Of a DNA stretch of 64,000 bases, positions 1,409 to 26,282 are shown in pieces. Position 1 is the first letter of the stretch. Each line of letters starts with the position of its first letter. The notes below the pieces were generated by a model. That model saw nothing but the letters and a program-made list of their open reading frames with translations. It was not told the origin of the DNA and did no database searches. The position numbers and the translations under genes are program-made. Origin of the DNA: Marsupella aquatica (lineage: Eukaryota; Plantae; Marchantiophyta); NCBI GenBank assembly GCA_973895155.1, contig OZ316894.1:13759580-13823579 (forward strand), in the 5' to 3' direction.

Positions 1409-2267
1409 TGTCCGAGTGACCGGTATATTATTGGCTCATTAGAAACCATAACAGCAGTTGCAAACTGAGCTCCAAAATGATAGGTTAGATGTTGCCTCAT
1501 AGATGGTTTGTCTAAAAGATGGACTCTAATCAAAAATGGATTACGAAGGGGAAGATCAGGGATAACTCTCTCTCCTGGATTCATGATGGCTCTCCTATTC
1601 CTTTGCTATCCGGGCCAAAGGACACTCCACCCCTATATTCCCAAAGAAACCTTATTCCCTAAGGTCCCATCTATAAGTCTACCACTCATTCCTTTGCTAT
1701 CCGGGCCAAAAGACGCCCCACTACTATGTTCAAGGCACAAAAGAGCTTCACAACCTTGAATGATAAACACTGCAGAATGAGGGGAGAGTGCCCCTCACCA
1801 CTTTATTTATAGTGCACACCAAGAGGGCATGGATCAAGCCCAAGCACTTGGATGAAGGCCAAGTGGCAAGCATCAAATACCTAAGAGTGTGCTATACTAT
1901 TCATAGTTGGTGAAACTACTTTTAGTAGGTGGAACTACCATGCATTGGTGGAACTACTGTGCGTTGGTGGACCTACTGTGCGTTGGTGGTCCTACTATGC
2001 GTTGGTGGACCTATTATGCGTTAGTGGACCTACTGTGCGTTGATAGAACTATTGTGCGTTGGTAGAACTACTCATATACATTGGTAGAACTGCTCATATG
2101 CATTGGTAGAACTACTCATATGCATTGGTGGAACTACTGTAGTCCGTTAATATAGCTAAAGAAGTTAATAAAGTCTAAATTTAATAATCTAACTACTAAA
2201 CTACTTATATAATCTATAACATATTAAAACAAACAATTTTTTTATAACTTAAGAAAAAATCACGACA
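1409..2267 (-). repeat. 3' LTR of Gypsy element 1, with an internal tandem array of about 19-21-bp units (TTGGTGGAACTACTGTGCG-like, about 1906-2141)
   Basis: Near-identical to 7404-7415 plus about 7740-8584. Begins TGTCCG and ends CACGACA. Purine-rich PPT-like tract on the minus strand at 2268-2285. Confidence 0.92.
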
Positions 2268-2389
2268 CATCACCCCTACCAAACCTGTGCATCCTCCTGT
2301 GTGCGCCACACCTAGAATCACTATATGTCTTCTTCATCTAAAGCCTCATAGTCGTCTGGTTCAAACTCTTCCTCTGTCATAAATCGAGT

Positions 2390-3760
2390 TCATCGTTTAA
2401 ACAATTTCACTCGCTTCCCTGCATAGGGATTGCGATGAATTGCTCCATCAAGTTCTCTTACCACATATGTTGCATTAGGATGAACCTCCTCCACCATAAA
2501 TGGTCCTCTCCAACGACGTGCAAACTTCTTCAGAGTAGAATGTTGCTGTTCCAACCCTCCCTCATAGATCAAGACCCAATCTTCATTTTGGATGGGAATT
2601 GGTCTCAAACGATGGGTCTTGTCAAACCGTTCTTTATTCTTCTCACGAGCCTCCTTTAGCCTTAGTAACGCCTCCTCAATCTTCTCCTTGGTCTGGCTAA
2701 AGTGCTCAATCCTTCGCTCCAGCAACTTTTCTCGGGAGATTCTATCTTGCCATTCAATCATCCTCCAACTCTGAACATTTTCCTCAATTGGCATCAAAGG
2801 CAAATGTCCAGAGACTAATTCGGCAGGCGTAATTCCTGTTGTGGTAGTGCATGCCATTCGATCTGCCAAAAGAGCAAACGGTAGAAGATTGGGCCAAAGC
2901 GATGGTTTTCCTCGGCAAGATTTCACCAAGGCATTCACAATTGGTGGGTGCCCTCGCTCAATCTTTCCATTCCCTTTTGGGTTGTAGGCAGTAGTAAGTT
3001 TGAGCTTGATGTTGAACCGGTCAAAAAATTCTGCAGCCTCTTCAGAATTCAACTCTCCTCTATCTACTCTCATTTGCACAAAACAACCATGACGTGCTAT
3101 AACGTCTTCAAGTATGAACCTGCATACTGCTTCTGTAGTGTTAGAGGTCAAAGCCCTTCCTTCAACATAGGAAGATAAATCTTCTCTTGCAAGGACAAGG
3201 TACTTTGCCCCCCTAATTCCTCATGGCATGTGCACCACATCTACTGCCCACTGAAAATATAAAGAAAGAGGACTAGTGGGATTAAGTCCATCTCTAAACC
3301 GAACTTTAGAGTAATATTGACAACTCTCACAAGATCCAACATAGGATTTTACATCCACATACATGTCTGACCACCAGTACCACCTTTGAACCCGCTCATA
3401 GGTAGCTCTAACTCCTCGATGTCCTGCTTCAACAGCATCATGAGAATCCCATAAGACTCTCTTCTTCTCTTCATCTGTATCAAGAACTCTACAAGAAATA
3501 TGTTCTTTCTTCAAAGACCTTCTCCATAAAACACCATCCTTTAGCATGAACTTGTAAGCCTTCTTCCGTAATTGTTGAAACTTCTCTTCTATCATTTCAA
3601 CAGGCCTTTGAAGAGTACTAAGGTACATTCCAATCAAGAGCAACTCTCCAGAATAGAGCTCCTCTTGAAATGTTAAGACCTCAAACTCTCCATTCATGAC
3701 TTGAACTGCCTCCACTTCATTTTGATCATAGCGGGCAATATGTGGTGACAAAGTTTGCAC
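2390..3760 (-). pseudogene. Gypsy integrase (zinc-binding region, core, GPY/F-like end)
   Basis: GHRGVRATYERVQRWYWW...CESCQ, WAVDVVHMP, VDRGE, TTAYNPKGNGKIERGH and RWRGPF, split by stop/frameshift lesions. Confidence 0.9.
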
Positions 3761-3769
3761 ATATTGCCT

Positions 3770-5504
3770 GAATAGAGGTCACCACATGAATAGATGGCTC
3801 TACCAGCAAATTCTTCCGCAAACTCATCTACTATAGGTCCTATTCCAGTATTGCGAATAGTAACTTTGTTAGGTGATTGCATGTCCTGAATAAATCTAAG
3901 TTTACCATTTTTTTTATGAATAGTAAACCAACGATTAGAATAAGGTGCATCTGCTCTTTCCAAAATCCTAGTGGAAAGCTTCTCCTTCAATAGATCAATA
4001 AGTTTAGGTAACAAAACCTTGGGCACTGGAATGGGTTTCAAGTCCCAAGGAACATGTGGAATAGTGAAAATTACCATAGGAATAACAACACTAGGATCCA
4101 CACATCCCATCTCTTTAGGACAAAAGGCAAAAGCCTTACCATGCTCACCAATCATTTGACGAAACTCCTCTCTCTCTTCTTTTGTCAACAACCCATCATC
4201 ACCAATCCTTAGTTGATTAAGGGTCTCCTTCGTGAATTTGTGGCCAATCTTAGTCCGATCTCTAAGACTGGTCTCTTTACTTGCCTTCTCCAAAATCTCC
4301 CTAGCATCCAAAGGTAAAGGAATTGCTGCTAGTCTCACTTTCTTTTCCACTGTTTTGTACTTGGTGTTGACCTCAACAAATTGAGACAACTCGCCATACA
4401 ACTCATGATTGATTTCCATATGAGCTTTCCCCTCTGAAAGGTCACCTTCAATTATTTCTTTCAAAGACACTTCTACTCCTTCTTCATCTAGAAGGCCTTC
4501 AATCTCTTCAATTTCCTCTAGCAATCCATGTATTTGCATAGTATCCTCAATCCTTGCAATTTTCTTTTTGAATTTTTTAGTAGCTTCACACACTTTCACA
4601 TAAGAAATTCGACAATGCAAGCTTTCACCTTCAAATGAGTCACCAGTGGGTCATTGGCGATGGCGCCCCGCCTTCCTGCATTGCTTAACGAGACGCCTTC
4701 CGGAAATCCTCATTTCCCTCCTTTGGGTTCAGGTCCTCTCAACTCCTTCCGATTCCTCCAATGTCCAGGTTTCACTACAGGAAATTGGATAACCCGCAAT
4801 TCATCCCGACTCCTTACCTTTGCCATATGAGTGTCATCTGGTAGGACCTTGTACTCCATTCGAGCTTGAGTAATGTAAGGCTGCTCTAGAATGAGATCAT
4901 AGGGCAAGCTATCATGCACAAAGATGTTAGTTGGTTCTATCACATGACCAACCTTCATTGATACTCCAGGGCATCCTCCCCAAAGCATATTCTTTGAACG
5001 ATTGATTGAGTTGACAGACCATTGAGTATCACAATCAATCATCCATTGCCCAAGATCATAGATGCTTCTTGACATTAGATTCACCTCAGATCCTGTGTCA
5101 ATTAATGCTCGAGATTTGACCTCCATTCCTACAAGCTCTACCTCCACAACTGAGCAAGTTCTTGCCCAAAACGGCTCCAAGATGGACTCCTTGTCGTCTC
5201 CTGAATCAGGATTCTTCATAGCTGAAGCACACATGACCCACACACTTTGTGAGGCCTTGAGCACCTCTTCACGACTAATTTTTGCCATATCCTGGGTCAC
5301 TGCAAATCCTGTTGTTGCTTTCACCAATGGTTTCCACCTCTCCAATACCTCAACTCCTGACATCTTTGGTTCAGGAACTTCCTTTGTTGAAGACCCTAGC
5401 ATCTGTGGTCTAGGGATCTTCTCCGCATTCACTTGATACACTTCACACTTCACACTCCACACTGGTTTGAGAAACAATTGAACCTTCTCCATCTTCATCA
5501 ACAT
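3770..5504 (-). pseudogene. Gypsy protease and N-terminal half of RT (RT C-terminus and RNase H deleted)
   Basis: ALIDTGSEVNLM (protease). PYSNRWFTIHKKNGKLRFIQDM...GDLYSG, followed by an abrupt jump near 3770 to the pre-integrase region. Confidence 0.85.
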
Positions 5505-7296
5505 CAGAAAAAACCTCTATTCCCAAGGCATGAGGTACTTCCTTGTAAAATCGTTTTCGTTTCACCTTTGCAAGTAATGCATCTTGAGCCTTGGAGTTCA
5601 TGCAAGCAAAAAACTCCTCATTGGTGACTCTGCTCACCTCCGCTTTCCAAAACTTCTCAGCAACTTGATCATACGCAATGTGCTGCTCAACATCTCTTCC
5701 AATGACCCAACTAGGTCCTTTCTTTTCCACCTTCTCTTTTTTTACCACTTCCATCTCCTTTGAGGATGAAGGAGTCGAAGTAGGCTCCTTTGTTGTACTT
5801 CCTCTATCTTCAAATCGAACACTCCTCCTTGTTGGGACTCTTGATGATGGTTGCAAAATAGAGGGTCCAGGCTCAACCTTTTGTTTTCTTTTGGCACGTT
5901 CTTCCAAAGGTTCCGACAACTTTTGTTTCTCCTCTACCATAGAATCCCATAGAGATCCCACTTCTGCAGTGAAAGAAGAGATCAACACTGGATCACTCCA
6001 ACCTGACTTCCTCCTTACAAACTCTGCTAGTCTCTTCTTGTCTGTCTCTGTTGACGAAGAACTCCCAAAGAGGGTGTAAACATCTGCTTCATGCTCATCC
6101 TGATCTCCAAAAGCTGTTGCAATGGCTGAAGTATGATGTTCAATCATTCTTCTCTCCACCAACACCTTCATACCGCCCTTATTTGTGTTTACTGGAATAA
6201 GCTCTACTGAATCATGATAAGCAAGCTTTCTTATGCCATCATGATCAATGAACTTGACTATTCTCTCTCTCAGAGCAACATAAAGCTCCCCACATTCATG
6301 CCTTGAGTGCTCCTTACTATCACACCAAATACAATTCCAACTCCTTGCTCCGCCAATGGAACTCCCGGCTCCTGGACCACCTCTTGACGCTAGTCTTGAT
6401 GTACCTCCTCCCATCTGCTCGAAGGCTTGGGTGGCAAGAATGGTAAGATTTTTCATGAGTTCAGACAACTCATCCATTTTGTCCATGCTTTTCTCACCCC
6501 TACCAGTTGTTGACTCTATTTTCTCCATTCTCCTCATAGAAGTCATAGGTGCAACCGCATCTAGAGCACCTTCATGACTCAACTTCTTTCTTCTATGCTT
6601 TTGGCTGACCCTAAGCACAACAATCTCAATCTCCTCCCAAGTTGGTGGACTGGCTCCACGACTTGGGTTCATCAATTCGAGAGCAAGCTCCAACTCGTCT
6701 TGAAGCTTCTCATCAGCAGCTCGGATAAGTAAAGTAGCCTTCTGTACCTTGATAACTTCAGAACCAATCTCAGGAAGCTGATTGAACTTCTTCGTAAACT
6801 CCCTTATCAGTTCTTGAGGTCCCAACTTCTTGCTTCTATTGGCCACTCAATCAAGGAAAGATGCTTGAGTAACCCGATCTGGATCTTCAAGCTAAAATTC
6901 TTCTTTCATCTTCAACTCAAAGACCTTCCATGCTTTCTCCCCAGTAGCTCCATCTATCAAGATAGTAACAATTCCCTTGAGTTCAGGTTCTACTAAAGAT
7001 ACAAACTCCTTGACTGCAACTTCTACATCAATCTTATGAATTGTAGCCTCCGTCCAGTACCCCTTGAGATACTTGGTTATATTTTGCCCATCAAATTCTC
7101 CTTGCTTGGTAAGAACCGAGTGTAGGTACTTTGTGGTCCTACCAAGCAACTCCTTCTTCTTGTTCTCCTCCATCTCCTTCTCCTTCATTCCATGTAAGTA
7201 AGCAGCAATCAAGGATGAAAACCTCTCCATGTCAGTTGGATTCATCTCAGTTCCCATGATTGCAATTCTTTCCTCTTGACTTAATAATATAAACAA
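5443..7296 (-). pseudogene. Gypsy gag
   Basis: GEFDGQNITKYLK motif and a CIWCDSKEHSRHEC zinc knuckle, broken into two ORFs, located just after the PBS. Confidence 0.8.
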
Positions 7297-7381
7297 GTTA
7301 AGAACTCAAAGTTCCAAAACCATATCTCTCTCCATCCATTAGAACTCAAACATGCACAAGCTAACTTCCAAATCCAGTGGT

Positions 7382-7399
7382 TCCCCAGTATGGTCGCCA
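7382..7399 (-). promoter_or_regulatory. Primer-binding site (TGGCGACCATACTGGGGA, tRNA-Arg-like)
   Basis: Starts with TGG, 4 nt inside the 5' LTR boundary at 7404. The tRNA assignment is from recalled plant tRNA 3' ends and is tentative. Confidence 0.7.
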
Positions 7400-7403
7400 C
7401 TTA

Positions 7404-8584
7404 TGTCCGGGTGACTGTGTTTTCTGGCAAGAGCATGTTGGCTCTTTTGAAATTAACCTTGCATGCTCATAAGTTCTACACTAAAATCAAAATGATAATT
7501 CTAGTAACAAGGGTAGTGGGTATTAAGAAAGGTTCAGGTGAAACTAAAATACTGTTAAACCTTACTTCACCATACTTGCGGACCAACACATCACAAAAAT
7601 TAGTTTTCTTACGATATATGATCCTAATATCTCCAAGAGAAAATGAAATAGGAATATCATCCGGACTCCTATTCAGATCCATGACTTCAATAAAGGACAA
7701 AGATGATGCACTCCCACTTCTCTCAGTACGACACCACTGGGTATATTATTGGCTCGTTAGAAATCATAACAGCAATTGCAAACTGAGCTCCAAAATGATA
7801 GGTTAGATGTTGCCTCATAGATGGTTTGTCTAAAAGATGGACTCTAATCAAAAACGGATTACGAAGGGGAAGATCAGGGATAACTCTCTCTCTTGGATTC
7901 ATGATGGCTCTCCTATTCCTTTGCTATCCGGGCCAAAGGATGCCCCACCCCTATATTCCCAAAGAAACCTTATTTCCTAAGGTCCCATCTATAAGTCTAC
8001 CACTCATTCCTTTGCTATCCGGGCCAAAAGACGCCCCACTACTATGTTCAAGGCACAAAAGAGCTTCACAACCTTGAATGATAAACACTGCAGAATGAGG
8101 GGAGAGTGCCCCTCACCACTTTATTTATAGTGCACACCAAGAGGGCATGGATCAAGCCCAAGCACTTGGATGAAGGCCAAGTGGCAAGCATCAAATACCT
8201 AAGAGTGTGCTATACTGTTCATAGTTGGTGAAACTACTTTTAGTAGGTGGAACTACCATGCATTGGTGGAACTACTGTGCGTTGGTGGACCTACTGTGCG
8301 TTGGTGGACCTACTGTGCGTTGGTGGACCTATTATGCGTTAGTGGACCTACTGTGCGTTGGTAGAACTATTGTGTGTTGGTAGAACTACTCATATATATT
8401 GGTAGAACTGCTCATATGCATTGGTAGAACTACTCATATGCATTGGTGGAACTACTGTAGTTCGTTAATATAGCTAAAGAAGTTAATAAAGTCTAAATTT
8501 AATAATCTAACTACTAAACTACTTATATAATCTATAACATATTAAAACAAACTATTTTTTATAACTTAAGAGAAAATCACGACA
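7404..8584 (-). repeat. 5' LTR of Gypsy element 1, with about 320 bp (about 7416-7739) absent from the 3' LTR
   Basis: Direct repeat of 1409-2267 apart from the extra segment. Confidence 0.9.
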
Positions 8585-9452: not shown

Positions 9453-12400
9453 CTATTCTCCAGATTCTGACTCACTACTCTCTGATCTATCCGTACTCTC
9501 TGCTTCATCGTCGATAAATTCATTTCGTGCCATATCATCGACAAATGGATGACGGATGAACTTTCTATCCAAACCACGTCTCAATCGTAAGCCCTTATTC
9601 TCCCAGGTCAGGGTTCTTCTACTCTCTTCTTTGCGAGCGGCATACTCTGCGTGTGAAGGCAATACAAATGGTTTCTCAGGGGTAATTAGGACTTTGCTCA
9701 AAAATTTCCTTCGCAGATTGAACCTCTCGCGAAGATTCCACTCTGACCTGCGAGTCAGTTGAAACACTAAGTACACTTCGAGAGAACCAGTAATTCAAGT
9801 ATACAAGATAAAAAGAAAACGGAAAGTTAAGTAATGTAAAGGAGCTTACAGGCATTACTCAGAAGAATCTGCTTCTTCCGTTTCTCCTTCTAAATGCCCC
9901 CCATCCTTTTTCTCTCCTTCTTTATGGACATCAATCCCGGCCTCTTCATCAGCTACATCGTCTTCTTCTTCTTCAGAATCAAAATTGAGAACAGATCGAA
10001 CTTTATCTTTCACTTTTTTCTCCATGTCTTTGCTCGGACCAGCCTCACTCGATTCTTTCGGGAGGAGCAAGTCAGTGTATGTCCTCTCAGCAATAGAAAC
10101 AAATTCCTTTCGATTCTCAATCCCAAGGATGAAACGGCCACAAAAATCCCCAGCCACAAATGTACTTCCTGACCCAACCGTCCAGTCCATAATAATATCT
10201 CCCGGATGAGAGATTAACTCCAGGACAGACTGCATGAAGCCAACCGGTAGTCGTGCATTCCCTGCAAATGCAACTTCTGGAACATGATCCTTCTTCAGAG
10301 TCTGCAGTCCAATGAGGTTTGTGATTGAAGGGTCCTCGGTTGAAGACAAAGGCTTGAACTTTGAATCTTTGGGGACCCTAACCTTTGATGTAACTCGACT
10401 AAAGATATCAAGTTTTAAGGTGAAAACCTGGAAAATAAATAGTATTCAATATGAGATTTGGTCACATATATTAATAGCGCCAAGCGCTAGCAAATGATTC
10501 TCTTTATTCAAAAGGACAATTACCTGACAATCGCTTTTGGTCATGTACATTGGGGCATCCATAACAACGTTGAGTGTTTTGAGGCACTGGAACTTCTGGG
10601 AATCTTGGCTGGCCAAAATTACTTGGGAGATCTGGTCATACTCCCCAGTGTGCAAAACTGCTAACAACCCACGTCGGCAAGAAATGGGTCCATTGCCCTA
10701 AAGAAAGAGCCAATCATTCGGTGATCCGGTACATTCCACTTTGGTGATTTTCGGTGAAGCAAAGAAGGTCGTAGACCTGTCGGTAGGTAGACGAAACCCG
10801 CATCCACCCCAAAAGATCTCAACTTGCCTCCCCTAACTACCCCTTTCTCCCGGAGACCAAGTGTCACTAAGTCTTTTCCCCACTTCTCGACATTCGTCAC
10901 CCACTTGGGTTTAGTCTCTTTTGTAAAAACAGATTCAAAAAAGTCCATTAGACTGGAGTCAACAAACATATGACGGCAAACTTTAGACTTGAATTGACCA
11001 ACTTCTCGTTGGACGCCTGTACATGCATACAATTCTCTAGAAGAAGAACCGAGATCAAGATTTTTCTTCTTCTTTTTTTTGTTGCTTGTGGCATCAACCG
11101 GACGATCAACGTTGGTATTTGCAGGAGGAGTCTGCTCTTGGGTAGCATCAGCAGCCTCAATGTTTGCTTCAGATTGATCAGGGGTAATGGTCGTCTTTGC
11201 ATCTTGAGTTTCTTCTCCCTCTGATTTCCTTCCCCCTGAAGAGAATCGAAAAGGTAAGAACACTGGGAAAACTATAACAGCGCCCGGCGCTAGCCAAACA
11301 TTTACTTTCTAAATTCTTGTTTATGAGTATACATTTAATAGTTAAAAGTAGCAAACTTACTCAATGCAAACATAGATTTAATAGTTAATCAAACTTTGCT
11401 TTTAACTATTAAATCAATGCAAACAACTAAGTGAATTTCAGAGGAAAAGATCAAGAAGAACTGCAAAAAGTCATATAACTTACGTTTTCTTCCGGATCTC
11501 GTGGACGGGCTATTCAATCCTGTATCAACTTTTACTTTTGCGCGAGGTTTTCGGCTCCTGTCAACATGTAAGACTTCAGTCTCACATATTTTTTGAAGCT
11601 CCACTCCAGAAGCTTCAACGTCTCCCACCAATCCTTCCTTCATTTCAGACAACCATTTCCGAGGAACTAAAGATTTGGACAATTTCAAAAAGGCATCTTT
11701 CTCAGATTCATCAAAAGGTGTATCCCACTTATCAGTATCGAGGTACCAGGGATAGTTTGTTCGCTCCCAAACAGAAATGTCACGTGGAGGATTGGCTCAT
11801 TCTGCAGGATACATCGAGTAAACCTCACTGAAATCATCCCCATCCATGACCGACCACCTCTGGAACATAGGAGGATAAGCCCAGAAATATTCAGGAGAAT
11901 TGCTCTCCATGGACAAGAAGAACCAATAAAGGTATCTCTTTGCCCGTTTCTGGTTTCGGGAAGAAAAATCTTCTTTCTCCCCATACTTTGACGCCCACAT
12001 TGTGTTAAAAAACTTCGCCTTGATTGTATCTCCGTAACTTTTGAAATCATTGCAAATCATCTGCACTAAAGCATCAAAAGTTTCTACACCTCCTGTGATA
12101 AGTCGTTCCGGAGGCATGACAGATTGAACTTGTCTAAGAGCAGTCTGCAACATCCCCATTGAAATTCCTTCGATCCAACTCCACATGTGCCAAGTGTGAC
12201 ACCATTGTTTAACAGGTTCGTCGTTCACACTTGGCGGATGGAAAAATTGCTTGCAAAGTTCGGGCATGCAATGCGCCACAAGAAGAGTGGAACGCAACTT
12301 TGGGTCCAAAGCTAAGACGGCAGTAAAGAGACGAGCATGATCCATCGTGCAAACCACAGCGTCTGCTTTTTGTTCTCGCTTGTTTTTCTCTGTCAGCGTG

Positions 12401-13462
12401 TACATTTCCGCACATGTTGACAGAAAATCTTTGAATTCGGGGCTAAGGAGTGGAGTGATCTTTGAGGTCTTCACGCTCCATTCTTTTGTGGCCTCCTTCA
12501 TCATTGCGGCATGACGCTTGGTGACCTCCTCCTTTGACCACGGCCTCCCTTGAGTGTTTGCAGTCGCCATGTCCAGTTTGAATTGCACAGAGTATGATTT
12601 GATCTTGTTCTCGCACAAGATGTACACAAGGGCCTCCAAAGGCATCTTCTTCGTATACCAAGAGCCTTTCCTTGTCTTTGCGCGAATTGCCTCAAAGCGT
12701 TTGAAGTTTCCGGCATCAATTATTGTCTTGTAATAATCAAGGTCATGGGACAGAATCCGACTAATTCTATCAGCATCGAGGATCCACGACGGTTCTACAA
12801 TGTCTTGCCCCAATCTGTATACAACCATAATTCATTAGCGCCATACGCTAACCAAAATCTCACAATGGAAAATTCGTCCAAATCAAAGAAAATGACCAAA
12901 CTTACTGATTGACACTGTGCATGGCGGCTTCAATCTCAATAAGAGAACCTCAATCTCCCTTGAACATAGTGCATAGCACACGAGGGTGGTACTTGATATT
13001 TTCGGGGTTCTCTTTTGTTACCTGCGACCAGGAATACAGACGATGATTCCCATCAAACACACAAAACATCTTATCTTTTAAGACAAGGAAATCTGGATCT
13101 GCTTCACAGTCCGCTTCAAATTTATCATTCCAGACAGCATCCCAACTCTCGCGGATTTTGGGGGTACAAAATTGGATGACGCCTTCAGAATCAACGGGTT
13201 GCACGTAGAATCGCATCCCAATGGAGGAGTTGTAACTGGAACTACGAAATGATTCTTTAAGCTTCTCGATTGAAGCACTCTCCTTCTAGAGAGTCCGCAC
13301 AACTTCCATATTGACCAGGCGACAAAGCGGTATACGCGGAGGGTCCTTGGACTTACCTCTAAAATCAGTGCCGAACGACATTGCATGTTTGGCAATCACA
13401 TCTCCCATCGCTAGCGACCCTTCACACCCGTCCTCCATGATGAAATCACTCAAATTCTCCAT
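9453..13462 (-). pseudogene. Spliced ParB-like domain plus beta-class N4-cytosine/N6-adenine DNA methyltransferase-like fusion gene (MULE cargo)
   Basis: Approximate exons 13462-12906, 12814-11484, about 11235-10524, 10427 to about 9851, and about 9747-9453, with GT-AG junctions. N-terminus IPLCRLV..VRTL..IEKLKESF...FYV...VFDGNHRLYSW...AAMHSVN is ParB/Srx-like. C-terminus has VDAGFVYLPTG (motif IV position), FLA(D)DGLLAVLH, and LPVGFMQSVLELISHPGDIIMDWTVGSGSTFVAGDFCGRFILGIE (motifs X, I, II). Stops and frameshifts present. Confidence 0.75.
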
Positions 13463-14046
13463 CACACCTCGTCTCTGCGTTGGGAAAGTCTGCGCAGAGT
13501 TCCGAAGTGAATGCGATGCAATCGAGCAAGTAACGTGTCATGTGTAAACAGAACCAACGAAAGATGTCTCCGATGTTTGAGAATTACCCAGGGAAGTGTT
13601 GTCCATCTCTAGATAAAGAGTCTATGGCCCTAAAATTTGGAGAGTTCTCAGCCACTCACAAAGGTCTGCAACGTTCTGCTGCAACCAGATAGATACGACC
13701 CACATCCAAAACAGCCAATATGGAGACCGTTTTCCCGCAACAGAATGACACAACCGCAAATCACACAGCAAGATCAGATCTGTCAAATTGACCTTTGACA
13801 GGAAAAAGATCCAAAAAAGACCGACAGCTGACTTAAATATGAATGTTCCATGATGAAAAATATAAGGTAATCGAGCAATCGAACCAAAGAGAAAGGGACA
13901 CTTGGCATATAGTACTGACGTGGTTACTCAAATCTAACAAAGAATCTCGTAATTAACATTCATTCAAGAGGTAAAAACGGTCACACGGGCATAAAGTTAC
14001 CGTTACAAATATCCGTTGGACAGACAACTCAGAGGATAATCATTAA

Positions 14047-14330: not shown

Positions 14331-15057
14331 TTATTCTTCGTTGTGAAAATATCCGTTAAATTAACGGAAACATTTTGTTTTCAATGGTCATCCGGCGCCA
14401 TTTATCTCAAATTTATACGTTGAGTGAATGGTAAAAATCTAAATATTTTGTGCGTTTGTGTGTGGTTTCTTCGTTCTTGATGATTTACTTGAGGGAAATA
14501 ATAAACCCAGGCTAGAAACACCCTTACCATTTTGCCATTCTGTCAGAATGTCACGGGTTATTAGGGTAAAATGTCCTCAAACAGGAGATGTGATTAGCGT
14601 TCCTGTGACTAACGGAGATGGTAATCAGCGTGTTAGTGAAGATTATCTTTGTGGAAGGTTTGATGTTAGGAGGAAAGACATTGAAAGCTTAGGGACAGAT
14701 GCCGAGGAGGTAGTGAATTCTTTTTACATTTTTGGTCAAAAATGGTGGGAACTGCACTGCGGTGTCGAGTACGCGCTTTTCCTCCGAGGAAAAGTAGTGA
14801 AACTAGAGATGGGGGATGCACCAACAGAGGTCATTGACCTCACGTCTGATGGTGATGACTCTTTCCCTGTCTCTCAATTTCCAATGCATCAATGTAGTAC
14901 CTCAACGGAAGATAGTGGAGGTGACAAGCTTCTTAAATCTCCTTCTCTTCCTATAGTTTATAGAAGGAGTGCGTTAGACGCTCTTTTGAAATTGACTGGT
15001 CAAAGTGAGCTATCTCGATTTGTAAGATCAGAGACTTTCAAGCACGAGCAAGTAGAA

Positions 15058-17121
15058 TGTCGCGCCACTAACCTGGGCCTTAAATCCAGTTTAGTGCCAT
15101 GGTGCGACCTCGACCACCAGTAAGGGTGAGGGTTCGGGCAAGGAGGTGTGTAGTGACCTCAATTAGCCCTAAGTCGGGCTAAGTCGATATACTTACCGGT
15201 ATAACACCTGAATAATTCATACTAGTCATAGGTATATTTGTTTTCCACCGCTGGAATATTCCCTCAATTAGTGACTCGGACTAACTCCCGGCTTGGGGCC
15301 TTTCAAGCCATCGACACGACAGGACCTTGTGACATACAATGAGTGGCAATCCCTACCATTAGACCGCACCCGGTACGTCCCTTAAAATGGCGCCTTTACC
15401 CAGACAAAGCATACACACAACACCAGTTACTTGCAAAAACATTAGGGGGAAAAGACTATATTTACTCAGCGAAGCATCAGTTTACATGGTTGACTCGACT
15501 TCAAAGGGGGTTAGCAGGCCCAACGGCAGTCGATGCCCAGTCTCTACGAGGCCCTGCCTTGCACTTGCCCAGCAAGCTCGACTCTGGCTCTCACTCCTTG
15601 GTGCACTCTGACCCTGCTCAGGCCGGGACTCCCCGTGCCTCACCTTCCCTCTGCTGAGATAACTAAGCCTTCTCCCCTTCCTCGGCGGAAGGGGAAGCCT
15701 AAATACTACAATCGCGGAGGAGAGCCAGAGGATACTGCCTTCCGGGATACTACCTACTGACTAACTACCTACTGACTACTGGCCGCGCCGCACTGACTGG
15801 TTGACCATCGACGACAAGGTGCCGACCGGAATGGCAACGGCCAAGCCTACTGACTAATTCTAGTCTGTTGATGGACTCCATCCTACGTTGGCGGATCCTA
15901 ACTGATCCGGCCCTAATTCTTCTTACTGCCGCTAATCGACGCCTAATGACAGTCATTCTGTCATTACGCCTAACCAAAAGATGCCGCTGACTTAACTGCC
16001 TCGCACGGCGCCTGCTTCCACCCTTCGCTAACCACCCCTTACGTGTGTGCAGTGGTTGGACCAAGGCTGGTCCCCTTGTCGGGACGAGACCTCGAGCCGC
16101 CTTGATCAGAGGTGGGCCCAGGTTTTCCCCGTTGGAGGATGAGCAGGGTAATGCGGTCCTGCAAGGCCTTATTGTCCCGTACCGCCTCCTCTGCCTCATT
16201 TGCAGCTTCATCGACCTCGGTCTGGAGCCGCGCTACCTCCAGATTGAGCTGGTCGATGGAGTTGCGATGGATCTGGTCTTGTGCTAGCAATTTATCTCGT
16301 TTGGCGGAGAGACTAGCCACCTGCTGTGCTGCCTGCACGAATTGTTTGTTGAGGTCGGTCAGGCTGGTAACCCGAGCCGAAGATTCTGAGCGTAATTGAA
16401 GCACGGTGTCATCCAGCTTCTTGAGTTCGACCTGCGCTCCGCTTAACTCCTGGTTTAGTCCGTCCCTCTGTTCGACGGTGCGGACTAACTCCTCGCGTCG
16501 GGTTGTTGCCTCCTCCTCGAGGTGCTCTACCAACATCTGGAGGCGCCCGATCTCATTCCCCTTCGCCATGAGTTCTTCTTCCAGGCGGCTTACAATCCGT
16601 GGTTGGTGCTCTAACATGAAGAAGGCTGGTTGAAAGTACGCTGAGACTTGTTATCCGATGTACGTCGCCAGCTCCCCAGACATAGTCTGGCTAAACTTCT
16701 GGACCAGGTCGTAGGCCATGGTCCCCAGGGCTACTTGGTAGTCCTCCATCCTCTCGGGTACCGGTGGTTCCTCGGCAGGGGCAATGAGCTCCTCCGTAGT
16801 CAGCGCTGGGGAGGGGAAGGTCTCTTCAGGTGGTGGAGGGATTGGGGGTGGTTGTATTGCGGGTAGCGGAGGCTCGACGGAAGGGAGCGGCGGAATTTCC
16901 ACAGGGGGCGGTGGTGGAGTATTAGTCGGGGCTTCCGGCTCGGGGTTTGCCCGAGGGATGGTAGTCTGCGTAGTCGGGGTTGCCTCCTCTGGGGCGGGGG
17001 TGACATTACCCGGGGCTGAGGTGGCCATATTCTTTCCTCTGGCCTCCCGCCGTGCCTTGTACCAGGCGAGGATAATGGCGATATGACTTCCCAAGTAAGT
17101 CTTCCCCCCAATAGCCGTACC
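15058..17121 (-). repeat. 3' LTR of element 2, truncated by a deletion that also removed the integrase end
   Basis: High-identity copy of 22434 to about 24498. The junction to integrase has filler sequence and a 29-bp tandem duplication (17139-17196). Confidence 0.88.
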
Positions 17122-17138
17122 TACTGTCGTACAAAAGT

Positions 17139-20100
17139 CTCCGACCCATTTAGTCGAGTAGTCGATACTCCGACCCATTTAGTCGAGTAGTCGATAGCAA
17201 GAAGGATGTACCGGCAACGCCGACCTCGGGTTACCGGAGTGAAAGGTCCTATATAATCGATGCCCCATTTCTCAAACGGGGCAAGGGGGAAGATTGGGGT
17301 AAGAGGATGATTACCCGACCTGCGAGGTTTGCCTGCGCGCTGACACAAGTCGCAACCTCGGATAAAATGGGCTACGTCGTGATGGAGCGTAGGCCACCAA
17401 TAACCTGCATCCAAGATTTTGTGAGCCGTGGTGACCGGGGCGAAGTGTCCTCCTGCCTCTTCCTCGTGCATAGCTTGCATGACAATGATCGTCTCGTTAT
17501 AATCTAGGCATCTGCGGATCTTCCCATCGACACCTTCCTTATGCAGATGTCCGCGGATCATCATGTATGGTGCGGCCTTGCGCAGAAAGACCGACGCGGC
17601 CTCTTGGTTTATGTTACTTGGAATGCGGGCCGTTAAGAGGAAGGTGATTAGGTCCCCGTACCACGTTGGTTGGTCCGTTTCTACGCGGAATAACTCTTCA
17701 TCAGGGAATGCGTCATCGACAGGTGCATCGTCTGATTCCCCTTCGATCCTCGAGAAGAAGTTTGCATTTACGTGAGCTTTCCCTGGTCGCACCCTGACTT
17801 CATAGTTAAATTCTTGGAGCAGCAGGACCCAACGGGCTATTCTCCCCGTTAAGTCTGCTTTGTTTACCATGTACTTCAGGCTATCATGGTCAGTATGGAA
17901 TACTACCTTATATCCCAATAGATAATGGCGAAACTTTTTACACGAGTAGATGATTCCCAAGGCCTCTCGATCGGTGGGCGAATAGTTTTTCTCTGCGATA
18001 AACAATTGTCGGCTCGCAAAATAATGGGGTGGTCACGTTTTTGGTCGTCCAGTTGGCTTAGGACTGAGCCGATGCAGAACCCAGACACGTCGACATACAC
18101 ATGGAACTCCTTGTTCCAATCGGGGGTAGTCAGAATCGAAGCCATCGTTAGCTGGTTTTTTAGTTCGTCAAAGGCTGATTTCCGACGGGGAGTCATTTCT
18201 ATGACCGCGTCTTGCTTCATCATTTCTGTGAGGGGTAGGGCTATCTTAGCGAAGTTCTGAATGAATCGTCGGTAGTACCCCACGCAGCCTAAGAAGGATC
18301 GCACCGCCTTCTGGTCCGCTGGGTAAGGGACATTCATCCACGCGGCCACCTTCTCTTGGTCCACCTCGATCCCCCATTTGGACACTCGGTGTCCTAGTAG
18401 CACTCCTTCCGTTACCCCGAAGAAGCATTTGCCCGGGTGTAATTTCAACCCTACTTCTCGGCATCGCTCCAAAGTCCGCCTCAGGTGTTTCGGGTGTTGG
18501 GCAATTGTTCCGAAGATGGTGAAATCATCTATGAATACCTCCAAAAATTCTCGTAAGAAGTCATGAAAAATATTCATAATGATTCGCTGGAACATAGCCG
18601 GAGCATTGCATAAGCCAAAGGGCATCGGTCGGAACGCGTAGGTTCCCCACTCAGTTATGAACGTGGTTTTGAGCTGGTCCGATAGTCTGATCCAAATCTG
18701 GTTATAACCCGAATATCCATCCAGGAACGTGTACACCTCGTTCCGGGCTACCATGTCAAGGACCATATCCGTGTAAGGAAGCGGGTAATGGTCCTTCCGA
18801 GTAGCATCGTTGAGCTTCCGATAGTCTTGGCATATTCAAATTTTGGGTTTTCCATCGGGCCCGACCTTCTTAGGAACCACCACAATGGGGGATACCCATT
18901 CACTAGATAAGACGGGGTAGATTATGTCCACCACGATCAGTTGATCTAACTCCTCCTTTACCAAGATGGAATGTCTTGGGTTTAGTCTTCGTTGTCTCTC
19001 TCGGACGGCATGCGCACCCAAGTTTAGATCAATGACGTGTTCGCCGTAGGCTGGTGAAATCCCGGTTAAGTCTCGGTGACTCCATGCGAAGACGTCCTCA
19101 TATTCCGATAGGAGTTCTTGGATGGCCTTTTCCTCTGGCGCTCGTAGGCCATAACCGACCTTGAATGTTCTCTCCCTCCTTGTGGTGTAATTGCCATAGT
19201 GCTCCTTGCGGATTACATCCACATGGTCTCTCGTGGTCCGGTCAAGATGAGCCTCCAATTCCTCTAGTCTGGTGCCATCGTAGGCCACGGGTTCCCAGAC
19301 TGTTGGCTGCTCCCTTGGGAGCTCCTTGGGTTCCTCTATTACGGACAGAATCTCGGGGCTCCAGGTAACCTTTTTCTTTGTGGGAGGAGTGGCGGTCTGA
19401 GTAGCGTTTTCTTCGGGTAAACCGGGCAAGGCAAGCCGGCCAACTGCCTTCTTAGGCCTCACTATTCCGGGGAATGCTCCGCCCGTCGCCGCATCATCTC
19501 CTTCTGGCCTCCCGGGTGTTTTGATTTGGGCCGCTGGCCTGGGCTGGTTCAGAAAATGGGTTTCTCGGACAGCACTTACCCCGAAGACTTCCTCTTCATC
19601 TAGGCGAGAGATTAACTCCACCATATTCACCTCTTCTTCTGAGATGTCCTCCTCCGAGTCATATTCTTTGGGTCCCTGGGGCATTTCGCCCTGGTAGTCT
19701 TCTTCCTTCCATGATACCGTCGTAGTCGGGTTACCGAATCGTAACTCCTTCCTTCCCCAGTCAGTCACGACTCGGGCACCGTATAACTAGGGTCTGCCCA
19801 GCAGTACTGGATAAGAAGAGGGTCGGACTGATCGCATCACTAGGTAATTTAGAAAAAACTCGAGGCCTCCAATCCACGTGGATATCTTGGTTAACGTCCC
19901 CAATGGCATGATCCTGGCGCCGTTTGCTAACCGAATGGCGCGCGCCGTGGGTTGATAAGACGTATATCCCAACCTTACGGAAGTGTCTTCCGTCATGATG
20001 TTTACACCGGACCCGCCGTCTACCGGTACAAACCGAACAGTACAACTCGCTATCTCGATAGAGACTTCCGGCGCTCCTAAGTCCTGGTAAATCATCATAC
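17139..20100 (-). pseudogene. Gypsy pol (PR, RT, RNase H, partial integrase) of element 2
   Basis: VPVDGGSGVNI, SEWVSPIVVVPKK, YTFLDGYSGYNQI, FIDDF, NYSPTDREALGII, GHFAP...CDLCQ and WGIDYIGP. Confidence 0.92.
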
Positions 20101-22319
20101 AGTTGGCTAAGGTGCTTACCCGAGGTAGCCGTCGCCTCCTCTTTCCTATCAGCATCTCCTTGAGTTGTTGCCGATACTTCGGGTTATCCTGTAATAGTTG
20201 TTCGACAGTGGTTGTAGCTGCACAGTTCTGAACATCCTTTTTGATGTCGTATTGGTTAGACGGTGGGGTCGCAGATTTTAATGCTTCTGCTTCCTTGACT
20301 TCAGCTTGCAAGGCAGTCTCAGCTTCCTCGGCTTCTTCTGCTGCCTTTGCATCGGCAATATCCTTCTTAATGGCTTTTTCGTGCTCTTGGGCCTCGTAGG
20401 CTTCCAATTGCTTTTTGACCAGTTCCTCTACTCGCGGGTAAAATAGCTTCGGGTTATCCCGTTGGTAGTCTTCTAGCTCGTCGGGTTCCATTGGAACATT
20501 CTTATTCGGGACCGCCTCTTTCTGCTGGGCATCCTTCCGAACTCGTTCTTTGTACTTGTCTTTCTTGCAGGATGACCGAGTAGAAATGCGATAGCACTCA
20601 TCGTCCGCGTGTGTTCCCGTTTGCTCAACTACTTCTATGAGGTCAATCCACTCGGTGGAGTCGTCCTGCCATTCCATTGTTACCATTTGTACTACTGCAT
20701 CCGTAATTGGTGGGGCCGCAGGTTGAGCAGCTCTGACGGCACCGGCCTTCGCGGCTAGCACCAAGGGGCAATTTGACGTGGAATGTGCTTCGGTTCGACA
20801 GACCTGGCACAATGGAAGCGCTCTCCCATCCCCTTGCTTCCGTTGCTCCGTGCACTCTCGGGCAAAGTGACCAGGTTTCTCGCAATTATAGCAAACTGGG
20901 GTCCGCCAAACTCCGGGTTTAGGTGGGATACTTGGATTGCTGACCATCTGGGGGCCACGCCCATTCACCGGGTATGGATAAGGGGTATGGAACCCTGGAT
21001 TATGGCCGCTTAGAGTGCGAGGTCCCGTCATACTCATCTAGAACACCGCCTCACCTGGATCCTCGAAGAAGTACTCCATCGTGCATTCCTCTGGCTCGGA
21101 CTGTCCGGGCTCCAACTCTATCTGGTGCACACAAGTATTCCATCTTGGACATTCTTGCACCACATGTCCCGACTGATAACACTTGGAGCACCAAGCATGT
21201 GCTCGGATTTCCGGTGGTTTCTTCTTGTCCGGAGGTTTTTCCGCCAAGTGCACCGATAGTGCCTTCAGCCGGTCTGTGATTTCGTTTAGCTTTTCTACCT
21301 CAGCCGCCTTTGGGTCCGCGGTGACGACTTTGGCTCGCGGTTTATGTTTACCCGCATCTGACCGTGATCCCTTCTTTCTTCGGTGGTTACGAGACTCTGA
21401 CACGGTCTCGCTGGAGGATGAGCCAGTTGTCGTTGGGCTACTAGACAAGGAATCACTAGACTCTGAATCAGAGTCTGACGAAGAGCTTGCCCGACCCTTC
21501 TTCTTATGGCATCATTTCTTCTTCCTTTTTTTCTCGTCGTACTCAGAGTCGGAGTCGCTGAAGGTATGATACCTCCTGCTCTTCGTATGCTTGGTCCTCC
21601 TATTAAGCTGAGAGGCGTAGTGCGATTCCCTGAAGGATTCGGCACTATCAATTGCTTGTTGCAGAGTGGTGGTCTTCTTTTCTAGTACCGAGAATGCCAT
21701 CCTCTGGGGTAGCGCGTTGACCAACCCAATTCCTCAGCAGAGAGTCATCTGGCTTAGGTCGAATCTTGGCGGCAACCTTCTGGAATCGCTGCAGAAATTT
21801 GCGAAGTGAGTCATGCTTACCCATTTGCATTTGTCCGATTTTTGACAGGGCCCGAGATTCGATCCCGACGGGCTGAAACTCTTGTAAGAACGCCGTTTGG
21901 AACTGGCCCCATGTGAAACCCGAGGGTTGTAAGTTATACCACGGGTGCGCTTCTCCTCGTAGCACGCCTGGAAGAATGGTTAGCTTAATGGCTTCCTCAC
22001 CATTTGCCTTGGTCGTGGCCTCGAACTTAGCTATCCATTCATCAGGGTCGTCCGTGGGTCGTCCCTTAAAGGGTCGATAAGTAAACCGGGATCGCTGAGA
22101 CACGTTCTGAGCCGCAGGGGGCCGCAACGCACCTGGTACCTGCGGGGCTGGTGGAACCGGTGGAGTTCCTCCCGCCATTGGTGCTTGGGTACCCATCACA
22201 ACACGCGATCCTGCTTGGGAAGCCGAGCTCCCCGCTTCGCCGGATGCGGTATTCTCTTCCAACCTTGATGCTCCGTCCGGTTGTTGTAAATACGCAGAAC
22301 GTGATCGGGTAAGGGGCAT
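20100..22319 (-). pseudogene. gag of element 2 with three CCHC zinc knuckles
   Basis: PFKGRPTDDPDEWIAKFE capsid-like motif; knuckles CSKCYQSGHVVQEC, CYNCEKPGHFAREC and CQVCRTEAHSTSNC; frameshifts present. Confidence 0.85.
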
Positions 22320-22397
22320 GCCCCTTCCTACACGTCGAGTACAAAATCAAAAGTTACTAGCTCACTACACGGCTCCACTCGTAAGGAAAAATGAATG

Positions 22398-22416
22398 CCC
22401 CCTTCATCTAGCGCCA
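22398..22416 (-). promoter_or_regulatory. Primer-binding site (TGGCGCTAGATGAAGGGGG, tRNA-Asn-like)
   Basis: Lies between the 5' LTR and the gag ATG, 17 nt from the LTR edge. The tRNA assignment is tentative. Confidence 0.6.
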
Positions 22417-22433
22417 AAAAACCGGTCGCCGTA

Positions 22434-25400
22434 TGTCGCGCCGCTAACCTGGGCCTTAAATCCAGTTTAGTGCCATGGTGCGACCTCGACCACCAGTAAG
22501 GGTGAGGGTTCGGGCAAGGAGGTGTGTAGTGACCTCAATTAGCCCTAAGTCGGGCTAAGTCAATATACTTACCTGTATAACACCTGAATAATTCGTACTA
22601 GTCATAGGTATATTTGTTTTCCACCGCTGGAATATTCCCTCAATTAGTGACTCGGACTAACTCCCGGCTTGGGGCCTTTCAAGCCATCGACACGACAGGA
22701 CCTTGTGACATACAATGAGTGGCAATCCCTACCATTAGTCCGCACCCGGTACGTCCCTTAAAATGGTGCCTTTACCCAGACAAAGCATACACACAACACC
22801 AGTTACTTGCAGAAACATTAGGGGGAAAAGACTACATTTACTCAGCGAAGCATCAGTTTACATGGTTGACTCGACTTCAAAGGGGGTCAGCAGGCCCAAC
22901 GGCAGTCAATGCCCAGTCTCTACGAGGCCCTGCCTCGCACTTGCCCAACAAGCTCGACTCTGGCTCTCACTCCTTGGTGCACTCTGACCCTGCTCAGGCC
23001 GGGACTCCCCGTGCCTCACCTTCCCTCTGCTGAGATAACTAAGCCTTCTCCCCTTCCTCGGCGGAAGGGGAAGCCTAAATACTACAATCGCGGAGGAGAG
23101 CCGGAGGATACTGCCTTCCGGGATACTACCTACTGACTAACTACCTACTGACTACTAGCCGCGCCGCACTGACTGGTTGACCGTCGATGACAAGGTGCCG
23201 ACCGGAATGGCAACGGCCAAGCCTACTGACTAATTCTAGTCCGTTGATGGACTCCATCCTACGTTGGCGGATCCTAACTGATCCGGCCCTAATTCTTCTT
23301 ACTGCCGCTAATCGGTGCCTAATGACAGTCATTCTGTCGTTACGCCTAACCAAAAGATGCCGTTGACTTAACTGCCTCGCACGGCGCCTACTTCCACCCT
23401 TCGCTAACCACCCCTTACGTGTGTGCAGTGGTTGGACCAAGGCTGGTCCCCTTGTCGGGACGAGACCTCGAGCCGCCTTGATCAGAGGTGGGCCCAGGTT
23501 TTCCCCGTTGGAGGCTGAGCAAGGTAATGCGGTCCTGCAAGGCCTTGTTGTCCCGTACCGCCTCCTCCGCCTCATTTGCAGCTTCATCGACCTCGGTTTG
23601 GAGCCGCGCTACCTCCAGATTGAGCTGGTTGATGGAGTTGCGATGGATCTGGTCCTGTGCTAGCAATTTATCTCGTTCGGCGGAGAGACTAGCCACCTGC
23701 TGTGCTGCCTGCACGAATTGTTTGTTGAGGTCGGTCAGGCTGGTAACCCGAGCCGAAGATTCTGAGCGTAATTGAAGCACGGTGTCATCCAGCTTCTTGA
23801 GTTCGACCTGCGCTCCGCTTAACTCCTGGTTTAGTCCATCCCTCTGTTCGACGGTGCGGACTAACTCCTCGCGTCGGGTTGTTGCCTCCTCCTCGAGGTG
23901 CTCTACCAACATCTGGAGGCGCCCGATCTCATTCCCCTTCGCCATGAGTTCTTCTTCCAGGCGGCTTACGATCCGTGGTTGGTGCTCTAACATGAAGAAG
24001 GCTGGTTGAAAGTACGCCAAGACTTGTTGTCTGATGTACGTCGCCAGCTCCCCAGACATAGTCTGGCTAAACTTCTGGACCAGATCGTAGGCCATGGTCC
24101 CCGGGGCTACTTGGTAGTCCTCCATCCTCTCGGGTACCGGTGGTTCCTCGGCAGGGGCAATGAGCTCCTCCGTAGTCAGCGCTGGGGAGGGGAAGGTATC
24201 TTCAGGTGGTGGAGGGATTGGGGGTGGTTGTACTGCGGGTAGCGGAGGCTCGACGGAAGGGGGCGGCAGAATTTCCACAGGGGGCGGTGGCGGAGTATGA
24301 GTCGGGGCTTCCAGCTCGGGGTTTGCCCGAGGGACGATAGTCCATGTAGTCGGGGTTGCCTCCTCTGGGGCGGGGGTGACATTACCCGGGGCTGAGGTGG
24401 CCATATTCTTTCCTCTGGCCTCCCGCCGTGCCTTGTACCAGGAGAAGGATAATGGCGATATGACTTCCCAAGTAAGTCTTCCCCCCAATAGCCATACCAC
24501 CCTGAGCCCACTTCAGCTCCCCCGAGAATCTTTGGTAGAAGAATTGGGCCCAGTTTCATCGTTTGTACTGTTCCACCTGCACGATCGTGCAGAGGGAAAT
24601 CTCGGATCGTGGCTCAATCATGTGTAGGGTAGTCCGTATGAAGTTAAGCTGCTCCATACAGGTTAAGTTGGTGCACGCCCCCTGCTTGTATCCGTTGTCC
24701 GTCTTACCCTCGGGTTTGAAGTGCCGTGGCGTATACTCCTTATCCCAAATTCGGATTTCCACCGGCACCGGCTCGGTTGGTAGGCAGAAGATTTGCGTTA
24801 ACCGATGCTCCATGAGTGATAAGGCCTACCCCGAAACCTTGGTGGTCGACGCGTCAGTGTCGAAATTGGAGATGAACTCACAAATCTCCTTCGGCCCGGT
24901 GGCGCACGGCCTCCATAGCAAGTGGGCGAACCGCTCCAACTGATGCTCCTTGAGATAGTCCGCATGTTCGAGTTTCTTGATCGCGATCCAGACTACTTCA
25001 GGGACGCGGATTACCTGTAATAAGTTGGACTTCGGGTTATCCGGAGGCCGTCGGGTCTGGTTGGTCAAGGGGTTTGCCGGGGCAGGTGCAGGCGCGGCGT
25101 CGGTCCGTGTTGATTTGGGGGCCGTCGTAGTCCTTGGCCGCTTACAAGGACGCTGTTCGAGTTGCGGACTAGCTCGCTCGGAACCCGAAGAACACTCCGT
25201 ATTGATTACTGGACGGACTTGGGACTGGTTCGGCGGTACTCTGGTGGTCATCGGTTGAGGCGCTGGTGGTATCGGGGTAGCCATATCCCAGTTGAAGGCG
25301 TTGGAGCTTTCCCCGAGGAACGTAAGATTACGCGCCGCTTCCCGTTGTCTGCTGATGTCTTCCTGGCGCTTTTCGGCTGCAATCTGCTGGTCTAGGTACC

Positions 25401-26282
25401 CCGGAATCTTGTCGAACTCCGCTTGAGTAAGCTGCTGGTTGCCCTTCAGCTTAAAGAACTTCGCTGGAACCTCAAGAATCGCCTCAGCTACCGATCTAAG
25501 CCCTTCCTTGCTGAGATATAGTTCGGTGATGTAGTCTCGCAGCTCGTTGTAGCTGGAATCCCTGGTGATGGCTGTCCTTTCGCAATTAACCAGTGCTACC
25601 TTGGTCACCAGCCTCGCGTATCTTCGTTCGTAAGCGGCTTTCTCGGGGCAAGAGTACCAGTAAGTCTCAGAGAACTTAGCACCTACCTCGCCAAATAAGG
25701 TCCAAAATCCCAAGGCTATGAGGGTCATACTAACCTCGTAGTCCGGTTCGTTGAGTCCGCGTTCCCACCCGGCTGGTCCTCTATCTCGTGGAGGCCTCGC
25801 TCATCCTGACTAAATCTCGCCACATTCCGCTCTTCTCCCTCGATAATCTCCTTGTAAAGGTCGACTCGATTCGATCAGCAGGGCGAGTGGGTGGCAACGT
25901 CCACGAATTCAAAGAAAGGTAGACATGAGCAAATGGCCCGCAGCGCCATCGGCTCCTCTCTTATGGAGGTGCCAGGATGAGCCCGAGCGTGAGAAGGCCA
26001 GGGCGTTTTGGGCATTGATAGCGAGCTGAAGTCGGCGCCTCGGTCCAAGCGTGATTCTTCTAACTGATTTTTACTCCGCTGCCGCCACCGTACCTCGGTT
26101 GCGCGTAATAATCCCCTTCCTTAACTCGTAATGATTCGATCATCTTAACCTACTCCTAATCTAATCATAATGGCAACAGACGGCTATACGTGCTATTCTA
26201 CACTATGGCTACGGTTCTAATGACCATATAAGTCCTAATCTACGACCTGGGTTCGGTCAAGTAACACGTTACCCGTGTCACA
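22434..26282 (-). repeat. 5' LTR of element 2 (3.85 kb)
   Basis: Bounded by the TSD-adjacent CA at 26282 and by TGTCGCG at 22434, which matches the element end at 15058. PBS is adjacent. Confidence 0.82.
23415..25728 (-). pseudogene. LTR-encoded accessory ORF of about 770 aa (plant-retroelement accessory-ORF-like domain, Pro-rich linker, coiled coil)
   Basis: ORFs 24826-25728, 24556-24813 and 23415-24500 join through two in-frame stops and one frameshift that is absent in the 3' LTR copy (HIAIILAWYKARR). Motifs EICEFISNF...TKVSG...IFCLP and NWAQFFYQRF. Confidence 0.7.

Follow-up and report, generated by a model that had tools for sequence, protein, structure and literature searches.

Within 64,000 nucleotides of the liverwort Marsupella aquatica (GCA_973895155.1, contig OZ316894.1, forward-strand positions 13,759,580 to 13,823,579; hereafter the window, with positions counted from its first letter), a DNA transposon at 985-29805 carries, next to its transposase, a spliced cargo gene that joins a likely ParB-type N-terminus to the fold of a beta-class amino-methyltransferase. 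The non-coding DNA of the same element is dotted with a 15-bp palindrome, TAGCGC-N3-GCGCTA. The reading that we favour, with a probability of roughly 45%, is that the cargo protein uses its ParB half to bind these palindromes, coats the element and keeps it expressed or shielded, and that the methyltransferase fold is a pseudo-enzyme that binds S-adenosylmethionine (SAM).

Structure of the Cargo Gene

The cargo gene lies on the minus strand (13606-9453) in five exons and gives a product of 1202 amino acids (aa) with one N placed at a frameshift; sequence and homology together predict splicing at four GT-AG introns (12905-12815, 11483-11236, 10523-10428 and 9858-9748). Exon 1 (12906-13606) encodes the ParB/Srx-type domain, with DGNHR at 13054-13040 as part of the VFDGNHR (13060-13040, minus strand) already pointed out in a preliminary description of this DNA. 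Exon 2 (11484-12814) encodes a helical middle region of about 410 aa, whose start weakly resembles the DNA-binding part of ParB/SopB, and exon 3 (10524-11235) a disordered linker with a basic stretch, followed by the first half of the methyltransferase fold (YLPT at 10789-10778). Motifs X, I and II of a beta-class amino-methyltransferase are found in exon 4 (9859-10427), together with the HPGDIIMDWTVGSGST...GRFILGIE noted earlier, and exon 5 (9453-9747) encodes a conserved acidic tail.

The preliminary description had given the gene as 9453-13462, and its end at 9453 was retained, but the open reading frame (ORF) probably begins at 13606. Its picture of a multi-exon gene within ends defined by a target-site duplication (TSD), head-to-head with the transposase, was confirmed, as the 8-bp duplication GCCAATCC surrounds the element (977-984 on the left and 29806-29813 on the right, plus strand) and the transposase begins at 14548 on the plus strand. 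The termini themselves (GAGG... on the left, ...CCC on the right) form only short imperfect inverted repeats, which contain TGACAGGAAAC.

The window copy of the element is dead, with four premature stops in the cargo gene (residues 23, 107 and 219 in exon 1, residue 573 in exon 2), one frameshift near 10671 in exon 3, and a transposase split by a long terminal repeat (LTR) element. Since an additional base is present there in other copies (throughout the covering depth of runs X1 and X2, and in 373 of 475 in X4), the frameshift represents damage to the window copy. Among 30 exonic variants in the 40 rows shown of 1400, 13 were silent and none was nonsense, a biased sample that was not used as proof of selection.

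Exon 5 is matched by a profile built only from Riccia tails (E 1.3e-5). The acidic C-terminal tail (LPxYA ... PFVDD-like; 9453-9650 and Riccia homologues) is conserved behind a disordered stretch, and probably represents a short motif recognised by some host protein.

The ParB-Type Half

The N-terminal domain contains a GxxR motif with a conserved upstream Arg and a conserved downstream Asn, and DGNHR or a close variant is present in the window cargo, in most homologues covering the region, and in the related element L020 (see below). A model of the homologue P0113 (906 aa, mean pLDDT 74) was compared with 48,161 chains in the VIA structural search, where the three best were KorB, PadC and pNOB8 ParB (Z 6.1, 5.6 and 5.5). 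KorB superposed with a root-mean-square deviation (rmsd) of 2.8 over 93 residues, sulfiredoxin ranked 7th, and the listed matches all include residues ~17-177 (Z 6.1-4.8). Additionally, the middle part of P0113 gave a weak match to the DNA-binding domain of SopB (Z 4.2), and the alignment with pNOB8 ParB comprised 221 residues.

The Atlas look-alikes of the ParB-type region were DUF3723 clusters, ParB_N clusters (ParB_N on 11-32% of members) and DUF6551, and the best of them for residues 155-340 of P0111 were DUF3723 clusters and one cnidarian cluster; DUF3723 itself may hold a ParB-type domain. The ParB-like match in PHROG was weak (E 0.3). Because of the structural ranking, the Atlas look-alikes and the conserved DGNHR, a ParB/Srx fold is likely for the modelled N-terminus, in agreement with the preliminary description, at moderate scores.

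The Methyltransferase-Fold Half

Exon 4 matches PF01555 with 36.7 bits against a cut-off of 26.7. A model of the homologue P0112 (mean pLDDT 54) matches CcrM in Foldseek with E 1.2e-7, with 94 matches at E<=0.001 in all, and the VIA search gave Z ~10 to MboIIA, HpyAVI, BceJIV and CcrM (best Z 10.8, rmsd 3.9 over 174 residues); the matches to beta-class enzymes run along the length of the model. In the VIA alignment, residue 19 of P0112 falls onto CcrM 19 and MboIIA 18, and D30 adjoins CcrM D31; bdelloid N4CMT is also among the structural matches. The fold of a beta-class amino-methyltransferase, as first proposed, is therefore well founded. The motif order is permuted (motif IV at about residue 827 and motif I at about 996 in the 1202-aa model), and so the beta-class order, with IV ahead of I, was read correctly, but motif IV itself is YLPT and not (D/N/S)PP(Y/F/W). 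Among phage sequences, the methyltransferase domain had just three weak matches, all confined to motif I.

The family-defining motif IV is given as [DNSH]PP[YFW], with the aromatic residue stacking on the target base (PMC4738411, PMC10406627). The motif IV pattern was matched in 17 of 130 collected proteins, every one with D[LM]P[ST]. Of the aligned homologues, 15 of 16 also have D[LM]P[ST] and Calypogeia has SVGT, while the related element L015 reads DCPM, so that the canonical catalytic motif was found in none of the four lineages (Riccia, Calypogeia, the window and L015). The alteration is not the decay of one copy, because the Riccia models that share it diverge down to ~50% identity.

As motif IV lacks the base-stacking aromatic across the family, DNA-methylating activity of the cargo is doubtful judging by its residues, and the earlier proposal that it marks its own copies with N4-methylcytosine or N6-methyladenine (4mC/6mA) is not supported. 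The opposite explanation, which is that of the preliminary description and of the hypothesis published for Ectocarpus, would be that the protein does write N4C/N6A marks by means of a variant catalytic loop and is guided by the ParB half to its own copies. In its favour, the whole beta-class fold is retained, the window lineage has nearly canonical motifs I (DWTVGSGST) and II (GIE), contigs of run X5, which bear a third organism label, concentrate on motif I and DGNHR, and the palindrome contains GCGC twice, which is a plausible target. All 18 Riccia models, moreover, retain the Asp of motif IV. Nevertheless, the fourth position of motif IV is never aromatic in the four lineages and only one proline is present, motif I of Riccia is changed to DFAGGWG (with its D, its G and the motif II E retained), and transposon-borne methyltransferases can be inactive, e.g., in DIRS1 (PMC4738411). 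We therefore regard an active writer as rather unlikely.

Homologues and Linkage to the Transposase

A search with exon 2 gave 101 proteins among 1.84 billion representatives; when longer proteins were queried with the same exon through a word index, no match was obtained. The homologues with names (18 proteins checked) belong to the liverworts Riccia sorocarpa and Calypogeia fissa, and when long proteins were searched with the methyltransferase region, all 16 matches were Riccia models, located on several contigs. Intact homologues include R1sor_007218 and R1sor_027256. Full-length Riccia homologues of 1207 and 1244 aa are collinear with the 1202-aa model, with ~35% identity in the ParB part and ~25% in the other parts, and a profile from the 16 Riccia sequences matches the methyltransferase region of the model with E 3.5e-21. 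The cargo is thus a gene, predicted to be spliced, of a multi-copy family with dispersed Riccia copies, and not the single-copy host gene that could have been the alternative. The element family is also multi-copy, because the contigs of runs X1, X2 and X4, of which 586-1165 each align to the element, span identities from >99% down to <90%.

The transposase is preserved in two parts on the plus strand, namely a 5' part (14548-15056) cut off by the LTR insertion and a remainder (26289-29463) with an intron from 27749 and with what reads as a Cys/His zinc-finger region, a DDE-type core and a SWIM-like finger, damaged by a frameshift and a premature stop. Its motifs were read by eye (conserved D, D, DxFH and E, with Cys/His fingers), and the set D, D, DxFH, E reads as Mutator-like element (MULE)-like. 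Searches of Pfam, PDB sequences and plasmids gave no match classifying the transposase. An 8-bp TSD, which is also produced by hAT and Zisupton elements, is found in the element and in a short relative. The element has no long terminal inverted repeats, only short imperfect ones; MULEs without terminal inverted repeats, such as VANDAL, exist. The duplication is within the Mutator/MULE range of 8-10 bp (PMC5225508). The assignment to a plant MULE is based on the duplication and on the motifs read by eye, but no profile match confirms it.

For the linkage test, 27 loci were obtained from the transposase alignment, with 8 distinct elements having at least 4.4 kb upstream. Three of these 8 carry a ParB-type gene head-to-head with the transposase, i.e., L010, L020 and L015 (independent E-values 6e-15, 7e-19 and 1e-4). 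L010 and L020 are 92% alike and L015 is ~70% alike to both; L015 additionally shows the middle region and the methyltransferase start, weak but in order (independent E-values ~0.5 twice). The transposases of these cargo-bearing elements are 27-34% identical to the query, and the closest locus of all, L001, reaches 64%. Among 19 transposase matches there was one named organism, Calypogeia, and the Riccia model P0065 fuses the transposase start to the middle part of the cargo, which points to adjacency of the two in Riccia too. The proposed linkage of the cargo to this type of transposase is thus upheld by the same layout in related elements.

This recurrence already largely refutes chance capture, i.e., a host or foreign gene without function for the element, which would fit a window copy that is a pseudogene and a cargo absent from 5 of the 8 testable elements. 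The same head-to-head layout is kept by the distant transposases, Riccia has many dispersed copies, all named homologues are multi-copy models, and the palindrome of the element sits within the cargo's own introns. Chance capture is consequently very improbable.

Palindromes in the Non-Coding DNA

At <=1 mismatch, the window contains 14 copies of TAGCGC-N3-GCGCTA, versus 0.02 expected (100 shuffles). Thirteen lie in the element (span 1124-29616): one near the left end (1124), one behind the cargo gene (9359), one each in three of the four cargo introns (10475, 11278 and 12836), four in the shared promoter (14047, 14152, 14213 and 14316), two in the transposase intron (27793 and 27850) and two near the right end (29535 and 29602). 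All 13 are non-coding, though non-coding DNA makes up 3.3 of the 10.4 kb of native DNA (P ~3e-7), and none was found in the 7.1 kb of exons or in the 18.4 kb of LTR insertions. The fourteenth is located in the short non-autonomous relative at 57399-57732.

In L001 the same arms are separated by a 2-nt spacer, with three copies in the matching transposase intron (one mismatched, the other two exact). The TAGCGC-N3-GCGCTA motif is missing from L010 and L020; both have, upstream of the cargo, a tandem array of 136 bp, within and near which lies a different palindrome, similar to CATATG-N8-CATATG. Such sites resemble the VANC21 sites of VANDAL21 (PMC5735166) and the arrays of inverted repeats next to red algal PAG3. 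By analogy with ParB sites, the palindrome is a likely candidate for the binding site of the cargo protein.

It could also be a site of the transposase or of end pairing, in which case the cargo would aid transposition by bridging or condensing DNA, or would have some other target, with no role in silencing. The ends with their short imperfect inverted repeats would suit this, as would the palindrome copies or half-sites in the non-autonomous relative and in a third end at 63711; bacterial ParB, in the accounts drawn on here, bridges and condenses DNA. What speaks for a different use is that a separate short ACAGGAA-like repeat, which also marks the subterminal regions, suits the transposase, and that the sites in the cargo introns and in the transposase intron are distant from the ends. 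We consider the explanation by transposition unlikely.

Proposed Mechanism

In the reading that we favour, the cargo protein would bind the 15-bp palindromes as a dimer, in the way in which ParB binds parS. Binding at the element ends, at the shared promoter and in most introns would coat the element, and, in the manner of VANC in VANDAL, the bound cargo would keep it expressed or protect its CG-rich sites against silencing by the host. SAM is likely still bound by the methyltransferase-fold half, which would no longer methylate DNA in the standard way; this half may be a scaffold, a dimer surface or a decoy, and not a writer.

Several observations weigh against this. No cargo was found in the remaining five of the 8 distinct elements whose upstream DNA reaches 4.4 kb or more, and L010, L015 and L020, which do bear it, are strongly CpG-depleted (0.23-0.28), so that these copies had no lasting protection. 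The fourth cargo intron is without a palindrome, and a non-autonomous relative that carries one suits a transposase site equally well. On the ParB side, Foldseek gave zero matches at E<=0.001 for the 906-aa model of P0113, the Pfam search of the cargo gave no ParB_N match, and a Z below 8, as in all the moderate ParB scores, can reflect a common arrangement. On the methyltransferase side, the 18 D[LM]P[ST] models all come from one genome (Riccia); the first residue of their motif IV (D) is kept along with the SAM-side residues, and the second position of the motif acts via its backbone carbonyl, so that some activity is conceivable.

The CpG ratios in the window are 0.72 for the cargo exons, 0.73 for the transposase exons, 0.20 for a neighbouring CACTA element, and 0.36 and 0.87 for the LTR elements; as a sign of protection they are ambiguous, since one LTR element is also high at 0.87.

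To speculate more widely, bryophyte transposons might hold a eukaryotic ParB/parS-like system, in which a nucleotide-switched clamp would load at palindromes in ends, promoter and introns and spread, a SAM-binding pseudo-methyltransferase would block or divert silencing, and the spacing would co-evolve between families. We think it quite unlikely in this complete form.

The Element and Its Surroundings

The transposon at 985-29805 consists of 10.4 kb of native DNA and 18.4 kb of inserted LTR elements. One LTR retrotransposon, foreign to the native element, is found at 1422-8584 (minus strand; LTR pair 97.8% alike), and another was inserted inside the transposase at 15057-26288 (minus strand), with TAGAA duplicated at its ends. 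The latter has a 2-kb repeat pair (15057-17121 and 22433-24498, 97.4% alike) with a coiled-coil ORF within, and its left repeat appears shortened; two contigs of run X4 cross its insertion site directly into the downstream transposase sequence.

The short non-autonomous relative with the same type of ends (57399-57732) has 334 bp, its own 8-bp TSD, CTGCCCAG, and two palindrome copies, and it sits in an intron-like gap of a CACTA transposase. The third end of the element's type begins at 63711 and continues past the window edge (63711-64000). The CACTA element in the region 52560-62150 (PF13963 and PF02992 matches) has a PHD-finger gene (NSD-like PHD, 54088-54759) directly upstream and a divergent ORF pair at 52560-53207, and may be another transposon with a chromatin-reader cargo. 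An intronless ORF of 1333 codons (43601-47602, minus strand) is presumably similar to the splicing factor SF3B1. Immediately right of the element, within retroelement-looking DNA, the fragment 30717-31175 (minus strand), with an LLDLFGG motif, resembles the beginning of the domain typical of C5 cytosine methyltransferases.

Relation to Known Systems

For green algae, the red algal preprint discussed below cites Iyer et al. 2011. The concept of such a cargo is already published, since the same architecture, orientation and hypothesis are described for the brown alga Ectocarpus, and related accessory genes for red algae. In Ectocarpus Sola1-1_Ec32, a ParB-like and an N4C/N6A methyltransferase domain are fused in a 1104-aa protein encoded opposite the transposase, with a published self-marking hypothesis (PMC12477816), the cargo described here being of similar size (both ~1100 aa) with the same proposed role. 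Compared by description, that element has a Sola-1 transposase and a 4-bp TSD, whereas ours is from a land plant, MULE-like and with an 8-bp TSD, and the passages of the Ectocarpus paper taken into account report neither a catalytic motif nor binding sites.

Red algal Plavaka elements encode PAG2/PAG3, with a ParB-like accessory protein, inverted-repeat arrays beside PAG3 and a PF01555 methylase in the cassette, and homologues are also present in Chondrus Mutator elements (bioRxiv 2025.02.11.637652). In these, however, one gene fuses ParB to a 2-oxoglutarate oxygenase and another joins the methylase with SET, and the repeats are tandem arrays, unlike the single sites spread through introns in the window element.

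VANC of Arabidopsis VANDAL elements is similarly a transposon-encoded helper with a short motif enriched in non-coding DNA that varies between related families, and the VANC21 sites are in introns, intergenic and terminal non-coding regions of VANDAL21 (PMC5735166). VANC has an asymmetric 9-bp motif in tandem arrangement, in contrast to the 15-bp palindrome, the proteins are unrelated (no Pfam match of that kind, different folds), and the anti-silencing that is demonstrated for VANC is proposed for the cargo. Marchantia DN4MT1 and bdelloid N4CMT share the eukaryotic beta-class amino-methyltransferase fold (bioRxiv 2021.02.12.428880, PMC8885841, PMC10406627), but they are host genes with intact SPPY and demonstrated activity, have no ParB domain and are not transposon cargo.

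With bacterial ParB and KorB, which act at parS or OB, the cargo shares the N-terminal fold, GxxR, the upstream Arg and the downstream Asn, and has a 15-bp palindromic candidate site; it differs by a long domain insertion, a far larger helical middle, the fused methyltransferase fold and no ParA partner seen. DUF3723, a conserved cargo of the giant mobile elements named Starships in fungi (bioRxiv 2021.12.13.472469), ranks first among the Atlas look-alikes of the ParB-type region (score 0.96, with PF12520 present on 31-47% of members), a resemblance seen only by the language model, with no Pfam match of the cargo to PF12520.

A literature search, with most subscription papers and Repbase outside its reach, gave no description of such cargo in a land-plant transposon, of the altered motif IV or of the palindrome. 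New here are the host group, the transposase type, the altered catalytic motif and the candidate binding palindrome.

For helpers of eukaryotic transposons with ParB and methyltransferase parts, binding and marking of the element that encodes them has been suggested, and no test is reported in the algal papers as far as their passages considered here go. The present family supplies a named 15-bp palindrome, a spacer variant in a relative, full-length liverwort homologues and the prediction of an altered methylase, and therefore makes the idea of self-recognition directly testable in land plants. It also suggests that binding, rather than marking, may be the conserved job of these proteins.

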